A stretch of 63,752 nucleotides of DNA, counting the filler, from Asterionella formosa (lineage: Eukaryota), in NCBI GenBank assembly GCA_002256025.1. It is 18 parts of 18 records of this genome, joined end to end, with 100 filler letters (N's around TTAATTAATTAA, not from the genome) between each part and the next. Parts side by side here need not be neighbours in the genome. Positions count along the whole stretch, not along the records: positions 57,905 to 59,787 come from NKIB01000942.1; 17 more parts are not named here. The stretch is one strand, 5' to 3'. This document shows, piece by piece, positions 10,453-63,752 of the stretch. A model generated the notes under the pieces. The model ran no database searches. It worked only from the letters and a program-made list of their open reading frames with translations, and was not told where the DNA came from. Each line of letters opens with the position of its first letter. The stretch's first letter is position 1. The position numbers and the translations under genes were made by a program.

Positions 10453-12291
10453 TCACCTGCCATTTAAATCTAAAGCTAGCAATGCACGTTCAAAGTCATC
10501 ATCATCAAACTCATCACACGTTTCTACTGCTTTCGTCACCTCTGGTACTGCTGTTCGAGGCAACAACGTCGTTTCATCAATTTGAGCCAAGTGTTCTTCC
10601 AACAAGGCATCCTCTAAACTTTGGATCACTGGTTCAGGCAAAGGCACTGGCGTTCCTTGAAATCCTCCAATACGACATTCTGGATCATGACACCCTTGAA
10701 TGGCAACCATACCTTGCAAATCTACTTTCCAAAAAATATTATTCGAGGAATGACATTTTCCAACACATTCACACCACCGGTTGCGACTCATTTGGTAAGT
10801 GATACAGTGAGAGATGCCTTGTTCATTGCAATCGATGGACCATGCCCGTATTGAACCTGGTATGCCATGACGAGTCGCGAGTGTCTTCAAAACAAAGGCA
10901 TCCAAAAAGGGGAAAGGAGATGGACCCATGGTGAGGACAGTGGAGCGCGATGCGAGCACATTATAGCATTTGTTCTCCACTTTTCGGTCGATTGTGTCTG
11001 GTAACAAAGGAAAGTCAATTTTAGAACCATTCAGGGGCACAATCAAGGTGGCTGCCAAGGCTTCAGCGTGGTCTGTAAAATCCAAAGATGCCAAAAATGC
11101 CTTTTTATCGAAATCATCTGCCGTTGTAACAATCATTTGAGATTGGGTAATATCAGGAGCATAAAAGGATGCATTTGTGAAATTGATAAAAGGAAATTGA
11201 TTGGTAGTAGCAATATGAAGGGCGGCTGATGCTGGTTTCCCACATTTGGACGATCCTAACAGTCGAAATAGCCGATTACGCGTATATACACCCAAGTCGA
11301 CAAAGCACGTTTTCTTTTCCGACTTGGGAACCGAAACAAACAAAAGATTATATAGAGCCGGTCTCCGTGATTCCAAAATTCCGGTTGCTTGCTCTTCTGC
11401 CAATCTACCCACAAAGGCCTTGACGAATCTGCCAGCTGCGACAGCATCCGGAAACAAGGTCCCATTGGGCAAGTGAACAATCAAATGGCGACTAAATTTC
11501 GTCGAGGTGGAAGATTCCAAATCCACCACGTTCGATCTTGTAATGTTCAAGTCGTAGTTGCTTCGAAGTTCAACCTCCAATTCTTCAATAAAGTCTTTCA
11601 TCAATTGCTCTGTTTCATCTTCCGTCACATTTGGATTGGCAATTTTACTAAATTCCAAATCAAAGTACAGCCGACACGGTGTTTTTTCTCGAATCAACTC
11701 ATAATAATGCCTGGCTTCAGGACATGTTTGTCTCCAATAATGATCCATGAATCGTCCGACATGACCCACCCAATATTTCCTAGTATGCGATGTTTCTTGA
11801 GCAAAGATGCGCGGTTCCATTCCATAGAGAGCCGTGGCGAACCAAGTAGGGTCCGAGTGGCGAGGAAAGTTCCGCTCTTGCTGAAAGGCAACCTTAAATT
11901 GATGTCTAAGTGTCGCTTGTCGAGGCGATGATTTTACAGTATGTTTGGATTGTTTTTTATTAGTTTCTTCTTCGTTGCCAAGAACAGCATCACCTCCTTG
12001 TCCCAAATGCACCAATTGCCATCGATCCAAATCAGTCAATGCCAACTCTTGTAGTGGCCAGCTTTGAAGGGAAGTGAGTTCTCGGTAGGACGATCGCTTC
12101 AAGGTTATTTGATTCGATACAGTCTTTCGTTGTTCTCTAACGACGTGATGTTTGGCATGCTCGAGAGTATGCGCCAGGTGTGCTGGTTGCTGGTTGTGAG
12201 ATGATTTGTGAAAGACAGATGGTGCAAGGCCTGAGGATGGTTTCTTTGAGACTTGTCGCGTCTCTTCCTCTCTCCATGGAAGCGACGACAT
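10453..12291 (-). CDS. PRIMPOL: DNA-directed primase/polymerase PrimPol
   Basis: AEP motifs HYYELI...CRLYFDLEF, KFSRHLI, FVDLGVYTRNRLFRL and UL52-type zinc finger RWCECVGKCHSSN...CHDPEC. Start taken at MSSLPW. Confidence 0.92.
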   Translation of the reverse strand: MSSLPWREEETRQVSKKPSSGLAPSVFHKSSHNQQPAHLAHTLEHAKHHVVREQRKTVSNQITLKRSSYRELTSLQSWPLQELALTDLDRWQLVHLGQGGDAVLGNEEETNKKQSKHTVKSSPRQATLRHQFKVAFQQERNFPRHSDPTWFATALYGMEPRIFAQETSHTRKYWVGHVGRFMDHYWRQTCPEARHYYELIREKTPCRLYFDLEFSKIANPNVTEDETEQLMKDFIEELEVELRSNYDLNITRSNVVDLESSTSTKFSRHLIVHLPNGTLFPDAVAAGRFVKAFVGRLAEEQATGILESRRPALYNLLFVSVPKSEKKTCFVDLGVYTRNRLFRLLGSSKCGKPASAALHIATTNQFPFINFTNASFYAPDITQSQMIVTTADDFDKKAFLASLDFTDHAEALAATLIVPLNGSKIDFPLLPDTIDRKVENKCYNVLASRSTVLTMGPSPFPFLDAFVLKTLATRHGIPGSIRAWSIDCNEQGISHCITYQMSRNRWCECVGKCHSSNNIFWKVDLQGMVAIQGCHDPECRIGGFQGTPVPLPEPVIQSLEDALLEEHLAQIDETTLLPRTAVPEVTKAVETCDEFDDDDFERALLALDLNGR

Positions 12292-12907
12292 GACGAATGA
12301 GGTGTGTTTGTTTGTTTGTTTGATTGAGTGCGAGGGAATAGGGAGGCAATGAACGAGGGACGATGTGAATTTGAATTTGATGATGTGTACCGGTAAATGA
12401 AATCGCGGAGAAAATGTGAGAAATAATAACGGTAATGCAACTGCCAAGGGCGTCGAGTCGACCAGTGACAAAGTACCTGGTACCGGTAGGTATGCTGAAA
12501 TAAGTTTTCAAGCTACGTATAGCAACAATGATGCATGCATTCGCTTGGCGCGAAAATTGGGTGGTGCACATGCTGAGAGCGGATACCACCTGTTACCTGG
12601 TACCGGTACCTGGTACCAGGTACCGATCAAAGACGACTTTTATCTGCATCATGTGGAGTACCGGTGTGTACTAAGAAGTATACAGCAATGTATGTACATG
12701 AACTATTATTTATGATGAATGATGATCGATGCTCACGGTCCATGGAATCTCTGAGAAAGAAAAAAGAGTTTTGCGCCATTTGCTTTATTATTTTCGGCCG
12801 ACTCCTCCTCTACATATTACAAATTTATACTGGCTGGTCGTTGTTCCATCATTTCAACTTATTCAAGTGTTCAGCCAAAGCTCATATTACCCGACAACAC
12901 AATCCTC

Positions 12908-46019: not shown

Positions 46020-47883
46020 TCATTTGTTATACATCTTGTTTGATGAACCAAGACGAGGAGAGTTCGCTGTGACGTTTGGGTGTCCATTGCAAAGAGAGGG
46101 TTTGCACTGGAGGAGGTATCGGAAGTGGCAAGACTTGGTTTCGTCGCCAGTGGCACCACAGGCGTCCGGAGCGGCCACGCGCGAGCCGTCGATTTGTCCG
46201 AGAACATTTCCGTTGCTTCCGTCGTGAGCAAACAAATCAATCACTGTCACACCATCCTCGCACTGAGCGGTGTAGGTATTCACATGCCCACATTTCACAT
46301 TGGTTTCCTTCATGCAAACGAGTTCGTCGGCCGTGTCGACAAAGTCGGTTGCTAACCAAGTGAGTCCATCGGAATTCTCGCATCCCGTCAAACTCTGCGA
46401 GACAGAGAAAGTGACAGACTCGCCATCCTGGGAAAGAATTGCAATCGGGTTTTCTGGGGGTTTCAAGGAGCATTTATCAACTGATACAGAAGTAATGTCG
46501 ATTTGCTTGGAAAGCTCCTCGCAATCTCGTGTTGCGGCTGTCGCGGTCTCCGCAATGGGACTCTCGGGAAGGCCATCCGCCTCATCGTCTTGAGGATTTT
46601 CGTCCGCCTCCAATAGCCGACGGGAACATGAAATGGGACCTTTGTAGCCACAACCGTGAATCTGAAGCTGGCCTACATTTGCGCCAGAGTCGGTGAGCTC
46701 CTTTGCAACAATAGAACCATCCACAAACCCGGCATCACCCAAAACTGTAACCTTCGAAAAGGGAGCTAACACGGAGCATCCAAACTGGCGTCCATCTGAA
46801 GTCTTTGTAATCGTAACGTCTGCGTTGGTGTTGAAGATAATAAGCGTTTTTCCGTCATCGTAAGCTTGGCCTTGAGGGCGGAAATCATAAAGGTTGTATG
46901 TTCCACCAGTCGTGACCACATGCACCTTGTAAACTCCAGAAGTAGAACTTCTTGCGTTCCGAGCAAGCCATTCATAGTGACCCCATGGCACATTCACCTG
47001 GGAGTCTGCAATGCCGGAAATGCGAGAATATCCGCCATGGTCGAAGTTGTTGAATTTTTGACATGTATCTCCGTAGAACGAACCAATGTACGACTTGCCA
47101 CTTGTATGTGCTGCAATATTTCCATACTCACTAGAGGATGATTTCGTGAACATTCCACCAACGATTATGGGACCATAAACATCATGTGCACCAATCTGGC
47201 AGTTGCCATGAGTGATAACAGCATAGTTTGGAGTAATTGGGGGCAAATCACATGTATACGATGGGGTTGGGGATGGAACAGGTGCAGCAGTATAGGAAAG
47301 GATTGGTCGTGGAGTTGGTTTTGATGTTGCACTATTGGTAGGGAGAGGCGTTGGAGATGGAACAGGTGCAGGAGTATAGGAAAATATTGGTCGTGGAGTT
47401 GGTTTTGATGTTGCACTATTGGTAGGAAGAGGCGTTGGAGATGGAACTGGTGCAGGAATAGGTACTCCACAGATCCTGTGGACAGTGATCTTGATGTTGT
47501 CAAAGCCAGCAGACTCATCAGAACTTGGACTGTTCACTTTTGTCTCAAACTTCAGGTCAAGCTTTCCGTCAGAAACGAATCTGCTAGGCAAGGTAACTGT
47601 AGCATGATGTTTTTGGTCGGACCACCAACTCTCACCAGAACCGCTGGCAAAGCAGCGCTGCGCCGGTGGTCCTTGACTTGCAATCACCAGATGAGCGTCT
47701 CCTACATCTGCTGTCCTGACTCCTTCGTCTTTTGTGGCATCGAAAACACCATTCCCTCCAAGAGGAATTCTGACAGTGTCAATAATGACACTGACATGGT
47801 CTTGGTCGGCGGAATCCCATGAATCAATCTCATAAAAGTCAAATTCAACAGTCACCGTTGATACATCGGTTGGAATACCACTA
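46020..47883 (-). CDS. 3' part of a large probably extracellular protein: Pro/Thr linker, choice-of-anchor-A-like domain, RRL site, Cys-rich C-terminal domain
   Basis: 611+ aa open frame running off the contig; 28-aa PT repeat x2 (84-bp period, ~47266-47457); NYAVIT.G...SVLAPFSKV...VDGSIVAK...QIH. Confidence 0.75.
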
Positions 47884-57804: not shown

Positions 57805-59495
57805 NNNNNNNNNNNNNNNNNNNNNNNNNNNNNNNNNNNNNNNNNNNNTTAATTAATTAANNNNNNNNNNNNNNNNNNNNNNNNNNNNNNNNNNNNNNNN
57901 NNNNACAATTATGAGCCTCAGGAAACTTCAACTAATAAAGCTGTGACTTCTTCAGAATCCACCAAAGGAGAAATTCAGCTGCAGTGGCTGTGAATTATGC
58001 TGGTTTCATTGCTGGTACAGAATTTCCTTGGTCAATGGTATCCTCCCGGATTGGAGATAGGCATGTGTCAAAAAATCTCGAAAAAATATTGATTCTAGTT
58101 TCTACACACTTTCTCCAGAAGGCTGGAAAGAGTGATACTTAGGAGCTGATTCAGATACAACGTCAGCAACAGCAACGGCAAAATTACCCGATGAAAACGA
58201 TGAACATGATGATGATGATGTCAATAATATCATCCATGTTGAATGTGGGGCACCAGAATGAGCAAATTCCAATGCCAGCATTGGACCCATTCAGGCAATG
58301 ATGAACTCCATGATAGCTTAAAAAATGATATCAATGCAGCAACAAATGCAAAATCAAAATCAACAGCAGCCTCCTATAACTCCAATGCCATCAACAGCAC
58401 CAAATACCAACAGTGCAACCCAACCTTTTTCTGGTGCATCGGTAGAATTTCAATCGCCAAATGATAAAAATGAAAGCAGTTGTGATGATGAATAATTGTA
58501 ATAAATTTTAAATCAATTAAATGTAAGAATGAAAACGCATACTTATTAGCACTTCTATGCAAATAGAGAATGTAAACAGAAGCAATTTGATTCTGACCAA
58601 CTTTACTCGCCCGAAAAATGGAAAGCAGCACAATCACTTGCAGGATTAGTTTTATTTCACCTTTCTCGTCATAACGAAATTTGTCTTTCTTGCATTTGTA
58701 AACTTGTTGATATTGATTGTATTAATGGAGAAACGTTCTGGATGGAAAGAGATGTTCATTTTGCTTGCTTGTGGTACTAAGCAATATCCCTTAAGTAGCT
58801 AGCTAGTAGAAAGGCAAATTTTGGAGTGGTGATTGCTTTTGCGCAGAAATGAAAGGAGGAAGTGGAAGAAGAACTGGAAGAAATTTCACGATCATCACAA
58901 GATTTCATTGTTGCTCTTGTAAACTGACATTGGAATGCGTGATATATACTGCCTCATCCCATATGCCAGAGAGAGCACCAATCATTTTGCTGTAGACCAG
59001 CTTAATGTTTCAATGCGACAATCAATTTTGAACTGAAGACACGCTCTTGAGTGTTAGGAAAAGTATCATGTTTTTCCCTCCAATCAGACACATTGATGTT
59101 TGCACAGACTTTGAAATTTGGATGTCAGAGTGTTCCAATGATAGTAGTGGGAGCAACCATAATCTGCTGGCATTAAACAGTTCTCTGCACTGGCATTTCT
59201 TATAGCTACTAGCTAATGTGATGATCAGAAGTTAAACTCAATTTATACTGGAATTATGCCAGGTAGCTAGCCCACAACTATCACTATAAGTGCTGGGGGG
59301 AAAGTGGCTAACCATGAGTGACGAGGGTGCTATAACATTTTACTCTTTTCATCATAGTAAGCAATATTTGTCATAAAGGGCGGTGCACCATCACTCATTA
59401 TCATGTCATACTCAAACATGCCTTGTGACTAGATCAGGAATGCACCAGTGAAGGCAATTTTTTTTGCAGAAGCACCACTCTAACCAGCCAAGTAG

Positions 59496-59695
59496 TGCTG
59501 AAGGCAATACACGCCCGAGGTGGTCTCTTGCCTGCGAGTATACATGTGTTCGAGGCTGGGTGGCGCGAGTAGGTTTTTGACCGTACGAGTGGCGCCCCCG
59601 GCGCTGCGAGAAGGTCACCCTACGAGTGCCATCCCAGTCGAGTACAAATGTATACGAGAAGGCAAGTAGCCGCCGAGAAGGGTATTGTTGAGGCA
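59496..59695 (+). ncRNA. Candidate structured non-coding RNA or ssDNA: ~200-nt rod with periodic tandem G.A pairs
   Basis: Manual pairing: CGAG 59516/59674, 59535/59655, 59551/59639, 59566/59623, 59586/59607; apical stem 59590-59606; multiple G-U pairs on this strand. Expression unknown. Confidence 0.6.
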
Positions 59696-60033
59696 ATTCC
59701 CGCTCTAGCTATCGTCGCGTCATTCGCTTACCTACTGCCCACAAATTTAGCATAAATGTCAATTTTAGCCTACTATTGCCCATCATANNNNNNNNNNNNN
59801 NNNNNNNNNNNNNNNNNNNNNNNNNNNNNNNTTAATTAATTAANNNNNNNNNNNNNNNNNNNNNNNNNNNNNNNNNNNNNNNNNNNNAAAAGCATTGTTG
59901 CTTTTCGTACATGATGCATGTACCAGGTGTACTGTCTAGCTACCGGTAAGTCATTAAACTCTCGCGACCTCGTCGTGCGTGAATGATCCATACCGGTGGA
60001 AATAATAATGGTATCATCATAGTGGAATACTTA

Positions 60034-60952
60034 GGGTCGTTCTTATCATTCCGAATTTGCTGTATCATTTCCGGGTTGTGGGCAAAAAATGACGGTTGGT
60101 ATCAAAACACGGTATCAGCAACGGTAACTTGATGGTATCAATTTTGTATCATTGATACAAAATTGATACCTTTTTTTGCCCCCTCCAAAAACGGTATCAG
60201 TGATACTGACGTTTTCGCGCGGGTATCATTTCCGTTGTCACTAATAAAATAACCGAAAATACGCCTGCAGGGCAGTACTTTTATTGACATCTATATTATA
60301 TACACAAAAATATTATGGTGTGCATCAAAGAAGCACAATACAATCATTATAGCGGCCGTGTGTGGTAATGTTCAGCCACAACACCAAAGAACGACAACCA
60401 CTGAGTCGAGAATTGAACAGATTGAGTCATGTGCATAGAGACATACCCGCTATGTAATTACAGGTACCTGGTACCGGTACCTGGTCCGGGAATTCATGAC
60501 AAGGTACTAGGCAATAGAATACGAAAATGATCACGTGACTACGACATATACTAGCTGTGCAAATACTTTGGCTTGCTGTCACTACAGGTACATTCTACTA
60601 TCACTCGTCCAGCACGTACTAGGCAATAGAATACGAAAATGATCACGTGACTACAACAAATACATGTGCAAATACAATTGACTATAGTACCCGGTAGTCC
60701 ATATACATAATTCGCGTAGATTTCTTGCATGGTTTGAGGACTGGTTTGGTATCATTATGTACCGGTAGTCAGGAAGGAAAAGCACATGTTTGTAGCCAGC
60801 CCGTAACCGTTGAATTTTCGTGATACTTTTTGGTGATACAATTTCATTTTTATTTTTGTGGAGAATGGATTTTTTCGGTTTAAATCGAGTAGCCGTTACA
60901 TGATACTTTTTCAAAAAAAATGATACCAAATCGAAAATGATAAGAACGACCC
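60034..60952. mobile_element. Non-autonomous PIF/Harbinger element (MITE), 919 bp, same family as 2819-3561
   Basis: TIR GGGTCGTTCTTATCATT...AATGATAAGAACGACCC with TTA on both sides; GTATCA/TGATAC subterminal motifs; perfect 37-bp palindrome at 60134-60170; internal ~60-bp duplication near 60504 and 60616. Confidence 0.9.
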
Positions 60953-61870: not shown

Positions 61871-63684
61871 TGCTTAGGCGCAAGTTGGCAAGACTTGGGA
61901 CATTTCTCGCAAGAGGACATGTCGTAAACGTCCAAACAACTATGCAGAATGTCATGGTGACACTAAGCATGCCCATGGCCACTACGGCACAAGCAGTTGT
62001 ACCAGCAGTACCAGCCATGCCTGTAGACCCTACGCGTGGGGCCCCGAAAATATATGTTGATTCACTCTAGGATTTTTCCGGGGATCCAATCAACTGGGAG
62101 GAATGGTACATTGGTACAGGTGCAACACTTGGGCAGACGGCATATGCAACACTTTTGACAGGTACAGGCAAGCCAGTACCAGCTGATACAGTAGGTATGG
62201 CACGTGACCGTGAATTATACAACATGCTGAAGAAAGCACTGTATAAGGGGACTGCACATCATATAATTGATGCAAATGGGCTCCAGAGTGGACATGATGC
62301 CTGGACTGGATTAAAGATGTGGTATGGAAAAGCAGAAGTATCAAGGACCCTTATTGATCACTACAGGAATCAACTCAATGAGTTACGACTGTCCAATAAG
62401 GTGAAAGCTAACGAGTACATAAACACGTTCATCCTCTGCAGTCGAAAGTTGGAAGATAAACATGAAGGCTACACTGAAGCAACAAAGCGGACTAAATTCC
62501 TTGATCAAATTGAGGATGAAGACTATGATGTTTGCGTTCAGAACCTTCGTGGTGACACCAACAAGACTTTTGATGAGTGTGTTCAACGTATTCGGAGCAG
62601 AGAACAGGAATTGGAAAGATTCTCACGAGAGAGTTCCACCAAGGCAAGGCGTGCAACAACTTTTACAAGTAAAGGTGGAGCCACACCTAAATCATCTAAA
62701 GACAACCAAATTCCTTTCCTCCCCACACACCTACTCAATACAATTAAATCCAATTCTATCAAGAAAGATCTATTTAAGTGGAGAAGTGTCTGGAATAATG
62801 AAGGAAGGGCAATTCGTGTCGACGAGTTGACTGGCGCCAATGGAGATGCCAAGAAAGATGACAACTCAGTCGAATCTGACGAGGGATGCCACTCCAAGAA
62901 CAAGCCAAAGACAAGAAAGCGCAAGAAGAAGGCTAGAAGGACAAAGACCTCAGCTTCTGGATTATGTGATACGGCTACACCTCATGTGAAAATCAAGGAC
63001 TCTGATGACAAAGACAGTGAGGACGATGGAGATGATAGTGACCAGGAAATAAATTCTACAACAATTACCCAAAAGAAGAAATCTAAGAAGGAGACTCCCA
63101 GGAAAAAGAAAAAGGGACGTCGCAACCCAGTACTCCGACGTGGACGCATTCTGGGGGAAGCAGCAAGGGTTGTGCTTGATGGAGGAACTGAATTTGAGGT
63201 CATTGGCGGAGTCGGAGGATGGAGAGTTCTGGAAAATGTGAGCAAGAGCGCAAAACTGCATGGTTGGGGGGCCAATATGGATGGACCTACTCTTCCAATT
63301 GTCAATGCAGTCACTGCTTATGAACATCCAGAAGCAAAAGAAACCTATTTACTTGGGTTGGGGGGAGCAGCCTTTGATGAAAGACCAGAACAAACAGAAG
63401 CGCTGATCAACACTCATGTGATGAGGCGTAATAATGTTATTGTTCATGACATTTCTGAACGGGATGGCAGTTTGCAATGCATTGAGGTTGACGACATTCA
63501 GATTAAACTATTGTTCACTGATGATGAAAAACTTCTTACATTCAATGTTTGCCTACCTACAATCGAAGAAGCAAACTCCCACACAATTCATTGGTTGACA
63601 CCACGAATTCCCAGCAACTCATCTGAGTTGTTGAAGCAATTCCCGCTCCAGCTATCGTCTTGCCATTCGGGTACTTCTAAGTAA
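61871..63684 (+). mobile_element. Diatom-type Ty1/copia gag-protease fragment with in-frame stop at 62068-62070
   Basis: DFSGDPINWEEW, GHDAWTGLKMWYG, protease VVLDGGTE...LPIVNAVTAY...EALINTH. Ends in unrelated TAAGTAATTT x3 sequence (63677-63720). Confidence 0.85.
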
Positions 63685-63752
63685 TTTTTACGCTCTAAGT
63701 AATTTCTTAAGTAATTTTTATTTAAGGGCAATATGGGGCACATCGAATTTTT

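Follow-up and report, generated by a model that had tools for sequence, protein, structure and literature searches.

The stretch of DNA considered here (the window; 63,752 nucleotides, filler included, from the Asterionella formosa assembly GCA_002256025.1) consists of contigs of about 1.9 kb joined by N-TTAATTAATTAA-N linkers, and carries nuclear genes of its eukaryotic host, TIP49, HAT1 and Aha1 among them, elsewhere along its length. The contig of interest occupies 57905-59787, its end at 59787 being confirmed, and close to that end there lies a long imperfect palindrome, referred to below as the rod. The features needed for the discussion, including a related end found in another part of the window, are as follows.

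59496..59695, + strand: the rod, an imperfect palindrome of 200 nt with 72 predicted pairs, forming the outermost part of a repeat.
59597-59599, + strand: apical loop of the rod in the RNA fold, with a C/C opposition inside the loop.
59496..59508, + strand: left direct repeat bracketing the rod (TGCTGAAGGCAAT), the first bases of the repeat.
59686..59697, + strand: right direct repeat bracketing the rod (TGTTGAGGCAAT), identical to the left copy in 11 of 13 aligned columns.
59685..59726, + strand: TIR-like stretch of the rod-bearing end (the A-end), matching 63628-63669 in blastn at 88% over 42 nt.
59727..59787, + strand: first part of the A-end subterminal region, which the end of the contig truncates.
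63628..63752, + strand: rod-less end (the B-end), belonging to the same element or to a sister, with a copia-like gag ORF before the insertion.

The first-pass annotation of this DNA had described the rod as a single structure folded about the loop at 59597-59599, and in each detail checked that description proved correct. Folded as RNA, the + strand reaches an MFE of -105.2 kcal/mol, with a z-score of -8.27 against 200 dinucleotide shuffles (mean -67.1, sd 4.6; none of the 200 as good), while the - strand reaches -76.4 kcal/mol (z -4.45); the structure is thus far past chance and the + strand folds better than the -, as had been proposed, although it must be remembered that the strand difference is partly built into the parameters, because the energy model favours, and so rewards, tandem G.A pairs. 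With DNA parameters the corresponding figures are -44.1 kcal/mol (z -4.97) for the + strand and -35.9 kcal/mol (z -3.01) for the -. The MFE pairs include nine G.U pairs, where at least six had been counted on the + strand beforehand, and the opposed non-pairs comprise 15 G/A, 3 C.A, 2 U.U and one each of G.G, U.C and U.A, so that, leaving aside the loop, purine-purine oppositions number 16 and pyrimidine-pyrimidine oppositions three. A sixth GA/AG pair suggested at the base of the rod is also present in the MFE structure, as the opposition 59500-59501/59690-59691. GC content is 0.54 at 59450-59749 and 0.39-0.41 upstream; the upstream flank, which had been taken for AT-rich decayed DNA, is instead single-copy sequence, with a depth of about 30 in the DNA run X1.

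The most distinctive feature of the rod is an array of ten CGAG motifs, starting at 59516, 59535, 59551, 59566, 59586, 59607, 59623, 59639, 59655 and 59674 (spacings of 19, 16, 15, 20, 21, 16, 16, 16 and 19 nt), which in the MFE structure do indeed oppose one another in register as five CGAG/CGAG pairs. There is no CTCG in the rod, and in 5000 dinucleotide-preserving shuffles, which contained CGAG 1.76 times on average and six times at most, the number ten was never reached; this upholds the earlier argument that a decayed inverted duplication would be an insufficient source of the array, such a duplication being unable to put CGAG in direct orientation inside inverted arms. Three further explanations were considered and set aside. 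Nested site-specific insertion was considered for the direct motifs, since Campbell-type integration leaves two copies of an asymmetric spacer in the same orientation, but the arms differ at every level and the units would be only 16-30 nt long; filtering by mismatch repair is an unlikely source of the G.A lattice, as two adjacent changes would be needed for each motif; and a coding explanation of the periodicity fails because the spacing is no multiple of three. No mutational route that was considered yields CGAG motifs in direct orientation within inverted arms.

Four public runs were compared across 59100-59787; in X1, 495 contigs align to this interval. Summed contig depth (here and below a sum over contigs, not a copy number) is 30.2 in every bin from 59100 to 59467, is 3,436 at 59491-59513 and rises to 37,008 further in, and 30 contigs have unlike sequences directly before 59496 (agreement 0.37). 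The step in depth, together with the many unlike flanks at the same position, therefore identifies a high-copy repeat with its left edge at 59496. A scan of metagenome contigs using a pattern from 59689-59712 found six loci (L001 to L006). The first 18 nt of the rod are common to the window, L001, L002, L003 and L005, behind five unrelated left flanks that end in A and then G or T, and all five boundaries start with TGCT. A scan of IMG/VR with an 18-mer gave four loci, all of them chance matches in phage genes with no likeness past the 18 nt, a scan of the same resource with a 27-nt degenerate pattern gave none, and a GTDB genome scan with a 22-mer gave a single chance match in a gene of a bacterial MAG. 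Given the jump in depth and the many different flanks, we regard it as very probable that the rod is the terminus of a mobile element. Parts of 59300-59787 occur in 20 runs from 17 studies, drawn from freshwater, estuarine, marine and sediment samples. Six of these runs are RNA libraries, containing 33-42% of the sampled words of the interval, and one RNA-library contig of 383 nt spans 59509-59787 and extends past it; these are Logan contigs, which reveal neither strand nor transcription, and RNA libraries may contain DNA. A marine run, X12, has one 243-nt contig on 59498-59547 that continues into sequence resembling the short form of the rod described below, and it carries no evidence as to habitat.

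Inward of the rod, L001, L003 and L004 continue the A-end subterminal region, in which ATTGCC/GGCAAT motifs are repeated and direct repeats rich in A/T are present; L001 (1185 nt) has 14 instances of GCAAT or its complement, where 2.5 would be expected, and the window has 3.3 per kb. The A-end stretch of about 42 nt recurs inverted at 63628-63669, where the flank is broken at about 63628 by the B-end; the copia-like gag ORF there (62071-63684) matches Retrotran_gag_2 with E 0.0023, short of the cut-off. At this rod-less end the bracketing stretch is single, 63630-63641 being the first bases. Since the end starts with TG beside a gag ORF, an LTR was considered as its identity and rejected, the shared end being inverted and leading to a gene of a recombinase family. 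In L001 the rod has immediately to its left an inverted sequence that shares 95.8% identity over 118 nt with 63635-63752, giving the order inverted B-end, rod, A-end, and the palindrome extends through both TIR-like stretches (-78.9 kcal/mol as DNA, z -9.6). One X9 contig has an inverted end joined directly to 59691 onward, without a rod, and this junction forms a palindromic core consisting of a 9-bp arm, TGAAG and the inverted arm, which, judged from its layout, appears to resemble a recombinase core site; in L001 the rod is placed between the two arms of that core. We infer that the A-end and the B-end belong to one element, although no complete element, or copy with both ends, was seen. 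The B-end terminus, followed from inward to outward, finishes in TTGCT, and the TGCT of the left direct repeat may be a crossover or a terminal direct repeat. Direct repeats of 12-16 nt lie on either side of the rod as a whole, and likewise of its inner 104 nt.

The copies of the rod come in two forms, distributed as follows.

Long rod: the window; L001 (197 nt); L004 (the contig begins inside the rod).
Short rod, 96 nt (59496-59554 joined to 59639 onward): L002, L003 and L005.
Form undecidable: L006, where there are only 45 nt, diverged.

The short form is without the inner 88 nt and has one copy fewer of a direct repeat of 16 nt, made up of CGAG and a self-palindromic 12-mer; a deletion between direct repeats would account for it, and so would a state that precedes an insertion. 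The + strand folds better than the - in each of the five complete copies, the window included: for the long rod of L001 the values are -111.5 and -83.8 kcal/mol, and for the short forms -39.5 and -27.5 (L003), -36.4 and -27.4 (L002) and -38.7 and -31.2 kcal/mol (L005). Differences from the window copy that occur in X1, with their effects on the rod, are these.

59647 A>C, 99.5% of X1 depth: G.A becomes G-C.
59672 G>A, 83% of X1 depth: U.G becomes U-A.
59638 T>C, 50% of X1 depth: G.U becomes G-C.
Loss of 3 nt at 59574, 51% of X1 depth: a bulge is removed.
59528 T>A, 26% of X1 depth (31 contigs): compensatory with 59665 in the same pair.
59665 A>T, 27% of X1 depth (23 contigs): compensatory with 59528 in the same pair.

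The four differences found at about half or more of the depth all improve the pairing, which gives the family consensus a better-paired rod than that of the window copy; the two compensatory changes occur together in L005. As to covariation, in seven aligned sequences just one pair had changed on both sides, a result equalled by 96 of 500 shuffles, and this alignment is uninformative because most pairs never vary. The idea that the CGAG motifs themselves are kept fixed did not survive the comparison. In seven of the ten the G of the CpG is changed to A at 6.9-17.5% of X1 summed depth and two CGAG C positions show C>T at 4-10%, much as at the other CpGs of the rod (6.8-8.4%); these changes are ordinary decay after insertion, in a pattern that suggests CpG methylation. 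In L004, moreover, five bases at the ninth CGAG have been exchanged for the exact complement of the left arm (three substitutions together), which suggests arm-templated repair or template switching on DNA, and from which it would follow that the hairpin does form on DNA in vivo. In X1 internal sequence is deleted or replaced at 15 or more different joints, each known from a single contig; full inverted (flop) copies of the rod were not seen at 5% or more in either X1 or X9.

Whether a protein gene is linked to the rod, as had been suggested for the sequence past the contig end, could be answered from related copies, in which such a gene does exist. L006 shares the end (95.8% over 119 nt) and some 520 nt of the interior (74.5% identical to L004), and contains on its + strand, from about 1.2 kb inward, an ORF of 215 codons that is cut off by the edge of the locus. 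This ORF comprises an N-terminal domain only, and a Pfam scan of five L006 ORFs, this one included, gave no match; an exhaustive HMMER search, on the other hand, found 152 homologues at E<=1e-3, 50 at E<=1e-10 and three at E<=1e-30. Among the 16 longer homologues scanned with Pfam, two match Phage_integrase (at best E 3.8e-5 and 24 bits, the curated cut-off being 27.1) and two DUF3504 (at best E 4.8e-4 and 20.7 bits, the cut-off being 29.7), all of them short of the cut-offs; no RVT domain was reported in any of the 16. A search of PDB sequences with a profile of the family gave no match. An AlphaFold (AF2) model of the homologue P0041, made from a 44-sequence alignment (mean pLDDT 76.4), was matched by Foldseek in the PDB best to QRICH1, a DUF3504 protein, and next to Tn1549 Int, Cre/Tre, XerA, XerH, lambda Int and IntI. 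These matches have E values of 1e-3 to 1e-1 (none is below 1e-3) and probabilities of 0.72-1.00, and all 33 of the matches listed (ranks 1-49) are QRICH1 or tyrosine recombinases. The element thus has a gene of a family whose fold, as modelled, is that of recombinases, and it is likely that what it encodes is a tyrosine recombinase, making it a YR element.

The recombinase catalytic domain was seen only in homologues, and not in the rod-bearing loci, in L006 or in the window, where tblastn with six of the homologues gave no match; the interior is known from L001, L004 and L006, for the first 0.5-2 kb. The main family is linked to the gene by the protein P0011, in which the recombinase N-domain is combined with a segment encoded in the A-type interior (L004 403-483; 67% identity over 27 residues). 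L001, L005 and L006 have a similar short ORF, led by an ATG, at 0.37-0.40 kb behind the rod, and in L004 a stop cuts it to 22 aa; this ORF may be exon 1. A protein-database search with the minus-strand ORF spanning the rod gave two matches among three candidates, both of them rearranged copies of the rod adjoining B-type end sequence and both known as protein records, with no DNA.

The rod, then, is the terminal palindrome of a high-copy mobile element and not a free-standing RNA gene. The best explanation of it, which we put forward tentatively, is that it is the terminal imperfect palindrome of a Crypton-like YR DNA transposon and serves as a recombination accessory at the DNA level. The element would move by recombination at the TGCT/TGAAG core of the end-to-end junction, and the rod, sitting inside that core, would act on DNA rather than RNA, as an accessory part of the recombination site. 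The top strand would be able to form an almost unbroken hairpin, or a single cruciform arm, and the bottom strand would not, only the top strand being predicted to fold continuously because the mismatches are almost all G.A and G.T on that strand; the folded top strand would in turn offer a strand- and orientation-specific substrate, at the end junction, to the recombinase or to host factors. The rod would not be essential to this scheme, because short and rod-less ends occur in many copies (three of the six metagenome loci have the short form, and the B-end of the window lacks the rod altogether). For the DNA-level recombination role taken by itself the same tentative wording, or one a shade more guarded, is appropriate, and the five CGAG/CGAG motifs are explained no better by the DNA-level model than by an RNA model.

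That RNA model, in which a + strand transcript of the rod serves as a structured leader, as hairpin RNA giving rise to small RNAs that control the element or as a lattice of sheared G.A pairs bound by protein, is an unlikely reading, but one with several points in its favour. In RNA folding the + strand has an advantage of about 29 kcal/mol in the window and of 7.5-28 kcal/mol in four other copies, it is the sense strand of the downstream gene, and its fold has nine G.U pairs to three C.A oppositions as well as the excess of purine-purine over pyrimidine-pyrimidine oppositions (16 to 3 outside the loop) noted above; to these may be added the six RNA libraries with 33-42% of the sampled words and the 383-nt contig over 59509-59787 and onward. 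However, Logan contigs show neither strand nor transcription and DNA is possible in the libraries, while G.T and sheared G.A pairs stabilise DNA too, the DNA fold being equally biased. The rod also lies at the extreme end of the element, upstream of A/T-rich, TATA-like repeats, and its own promoter therefore probably would not transcribe it; in a leader, a hairpin of -105 kcal/mol would block scanning. Nor does the single compensatory pair, equalled in 96 of 500 shuffles, amount to significant support for an RNA. An Rfam scan of 58500-59787 (E<=10), proposed earlier as a way of recognising a known family, gave four weak matches, none of them inside the rod and none a ribozyme. The lack of any ribozyme or other Rfam match on the rod also tells against the suggestion of a viroid-like or retrozyme-like insert, and that of a retroelement signal fares no better: no sign of a retroelement was found, and the context is a high-copy DNA element with a gene family that models as a tyrosine recombinase.

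A rather less likely alternative again is that the rod has no function, being a palindrome that arose and was remodelled when recombination or repair went wrong at the end junction (through hairpin-capped breaks, template switching or duplication of the core) and that hitch-hikes with a successful element. It would fit with the commonness of rod-less and short ends (the B-end in the window, one X9 junction, three of six loci), with the 15 or more internal deletion or replacement joints in X1, with the direct repeats of 12-16 nt around the whole rod and around its inner 104 nt, with CpG decay that is similar in CGAG and elsewhere in the rod, and with the templated patch in L004. Against it stand the ten CGAG motifs without a CTCG, which go beyond inverted duplication plus random decay, and the strong skew of the mismatches to G.A on one strand, as well as the pattern of variation, in which the four commonest differences in X1 (59647, 59672, 59638 and the bulge deletion) all improve pairing and 59528 T>A and 59665 A>T fall on the partners of one pair. 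It is improbable, finally, that the rod moves as a small unit of its own, a palindrome of foldback/MITE-like or cassette-like kind, inserted into the 13-nt start of its host element and mobilised in trans. In favour of this are the two copies of a 12-13-nt direct repeat, one to the left and one to the right of the rod, where the rod-less end has a single one (63630-63641), and the outermost stem CAATAC/GTATTG would, were the unit circular, form inverted arms around the repeat; but the rod adjoins the A-type end in the window and in all six loci, never lying away from the TIR-like stretch, the two protein-database ORFs put it beside B-type end sequence, and a circle of 190 nt would be implausibly small for recombinase synapsis.

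Returning to the tentative reading of the rod as a DNA-level recombination accessory, several known systems offer themselves for comparison. Integron attC sites and the CTX-phage attP(+) hairpin are folded, single-stranded substrates of tyrosine recombinases, and the rod is like them in being an imperfect palindrome beside a putative YR crossover site, with mismatches that cause the two strands to fold unequally; those sites, however, are bacterial, measure 57-150 nt, and have their strand marked by extrahelical bases and not by five tandem G.A motifs. That a eukaryotic YR transposon should use a folded strand or cruciform arm in the manner of attC, the recombinogenic strand being marked in this instance by a periodic lattice of five sheared CGAG/CGAG tandems open to the top strand alone, is a long shot, within which the rod may be a cassette-like unit captured into the palindromic core. 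The terminal hairpins of parvoviruses and poxviruses contain mismatched “bubbles”, form the ends of linear replicons and exist as flip/flop isomers. In common with these the rod is a terminal palindrome within the range of 100-250 nt that has conserved mismatches and non-equivalent arms, but unlike them it is integrated in chromosomal DNA with unique flanks.

As regards the motif itself, the 5'-CGAG-3' tandem of sheared G.A pairs, of the r(GGCGAGCC)2 type, is known as an isolated motif in thermodynamic and structural work, and also from rRNA, ribozymes and K-turns, and the rod has the same self-opposed four bases closed by C-G pairs. A periodic array of five such tandems in one rod is not known to us, and a full-text search of the literature found no periodic CGAG tandems; five identical tandem G.A motifs in a single helix make the rod an unusual natural object for work on nucleic-acid structure. 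With foldback elements and MITEs the rod has in common its capacity to form a hairpin, its high copy number and the short direct repeat on both sides, but it differs in not having been seen alone, being attached to an element that bears a gene, and its arms are no simple inverted repeats, because the CGAG motifs are in direct orientation; in a census that is admittedly small (the window, six loci and two database ORFs) it was found beside the TIR-like end. The element differs likewise from an LTR retrotransposon, in that its shared end sequence is inverted and not direct, and in that its interior leads, in L006, to an ORF of a recombinase family.

There remain the Cryptons, which are among the less-studied groups of eukaryotic DNA transposons, and for which little has been established as to how ends are chosen and joined. 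Substrates for in vitro tests of circle formation and integration would be supplied by a very abundant family in which the end junction is palindromic, the ends are TIR-like and the terminal palindrome is long, strand-biased and studded with G.A pairs, and even if the rod is junk, a sharply defined and widely distributed repeat has still been documented. In the available part of the account by Kojima and Jurka, DUF3504 derives from Crypton recombinases, TATGG is the terminal direct repeat of most CryptonS, and published Cryptons have neither TIRs nor long repeats, only terminal direct repeats of 4-6 bp (PMC3212892); PMC3627910, as far as its available part goes, likewise describes Cryptons without TIRs. 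No Crypton terminal palindrome is described in the parts of this literature to hand, although the supplementary sequences of PMC3212892 could contain comparable ends; nor does such an end appear in the corresponding parts of papers on Replitrons and introners in which Cryptons are mentioned (PMC10288648, PMC12130899). The element shares several features with Cryptons: a single gene family of recombinase type, matched best in fold by QRICH1, a DUF3504 protein of Crypton derivation; no RVT domain reported among the 16 homologues scanned; TGCT, possibly a terminal direct repeat of 4 nt, where the rod-bearing end starts and where the B-end terminates; and end junctions that lie head to head, which circles or tandem integration would lead one to expect. 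It departs from them, as they are portrayed in the same part of PMC3212892, in its GCAAT motifs, in its 200-nt terminal palindrome and in its TIR-like stretch of about 42 nt: where Cryptons have no TIRs, 59685-59726 and 63628-63669 agree at 88% over 42 nt, and stand inverted around the rod in L001. What would be new here is a Crypton-like element with an unusual end architecture, and not a new class of RNA.

The window does not represent one locus: the sequence and its N runs (1891-61870) show it to be built of several separate stretches, comprising three longer ones with N runs of 411 and 328 between them, followed by roughly 16 contigs, each about 1.9 kb long. Between the short contigs the linkers each consist of 44 N, TTAATTAATTAA and a further 44 N, and as contigs have been joined by such linkers, those on either side of one have no physical connection to each other.

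In the rod-less (B-type) end a unit of approximately 13 nt, resembling CTAAGTAATTT, occurs three times in tandem, after which comes a GGCAAT...ATTGCC inverted pair (positions 317-430 of the oriented metagenome locus L001, corresponding to window 63670-63752). The two database proteins that match the minus-strand ORF spanning the rod, P0151 and P0152, proved to be gene-caller translations of rearranged rod copies, present on two ENA contigs that are 1731 and 4032 nt long. In one of them the left rod arm gives way, at the apical loop, to interior sequence of the B type; in the other the rod adjoins a B-type end. Given these copies lying beside B-type sequence, the rod is not confined to the A-type (rod-bearing) end.

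The rod-less end is also met within one of the following ORFs of the window.

10453-12507, minus strand: ORF of 684 codons, weak Herpes_UL52/UL70 primase-type match (E 1e-4)
46020-47882, minus strand: ORF of 620 codons, match to a "putative ice-binding-like adhesive domain" (pAdhesive_15, E 3.6e-8)
62071-63684, plus strand: stop-to-stop ORF, 537 codons, weak copia-type gag match (Retrotran_gag_2, E 0.0023, under the cut-off)

The final 55 or so nucleotides of the gag ORF run into the rod-less end at 63628, and since the ORF thus ends inside it, the gag gene appears to have been broken by that insertion. The 684-codon ORF sits on a long gene-bearing contig, alongside ordinary nuclear genes.

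Other dispersed repeats are seen in the flanks of rod copies. For the L002 copy, which has the short rod form, the left flank (L002 11-485) matches window 60033-60496 with 90.5% identity across 475 nt, on the contig that follows that of the rod; this repeat, which has "GGTATCA"-rich inverted repeats at 60134-60170, probably belongs to a different transposon family from the rod-bearing element. The flank of the L005 copy (672-801), also of the short form, is 75% identical over 130 nt to a window contig at 41522-41646, and is a further dispersed repeat.

Finally, when contigs from two public sequencing runs (X1 and X9) were compared across window 59496-59720, most of the low-frequency variants among the repeat copies were found to be G>A or C>T changes at CpG, a pattern that marks the repeat as subject to cytosine methylation and deamination in its host.
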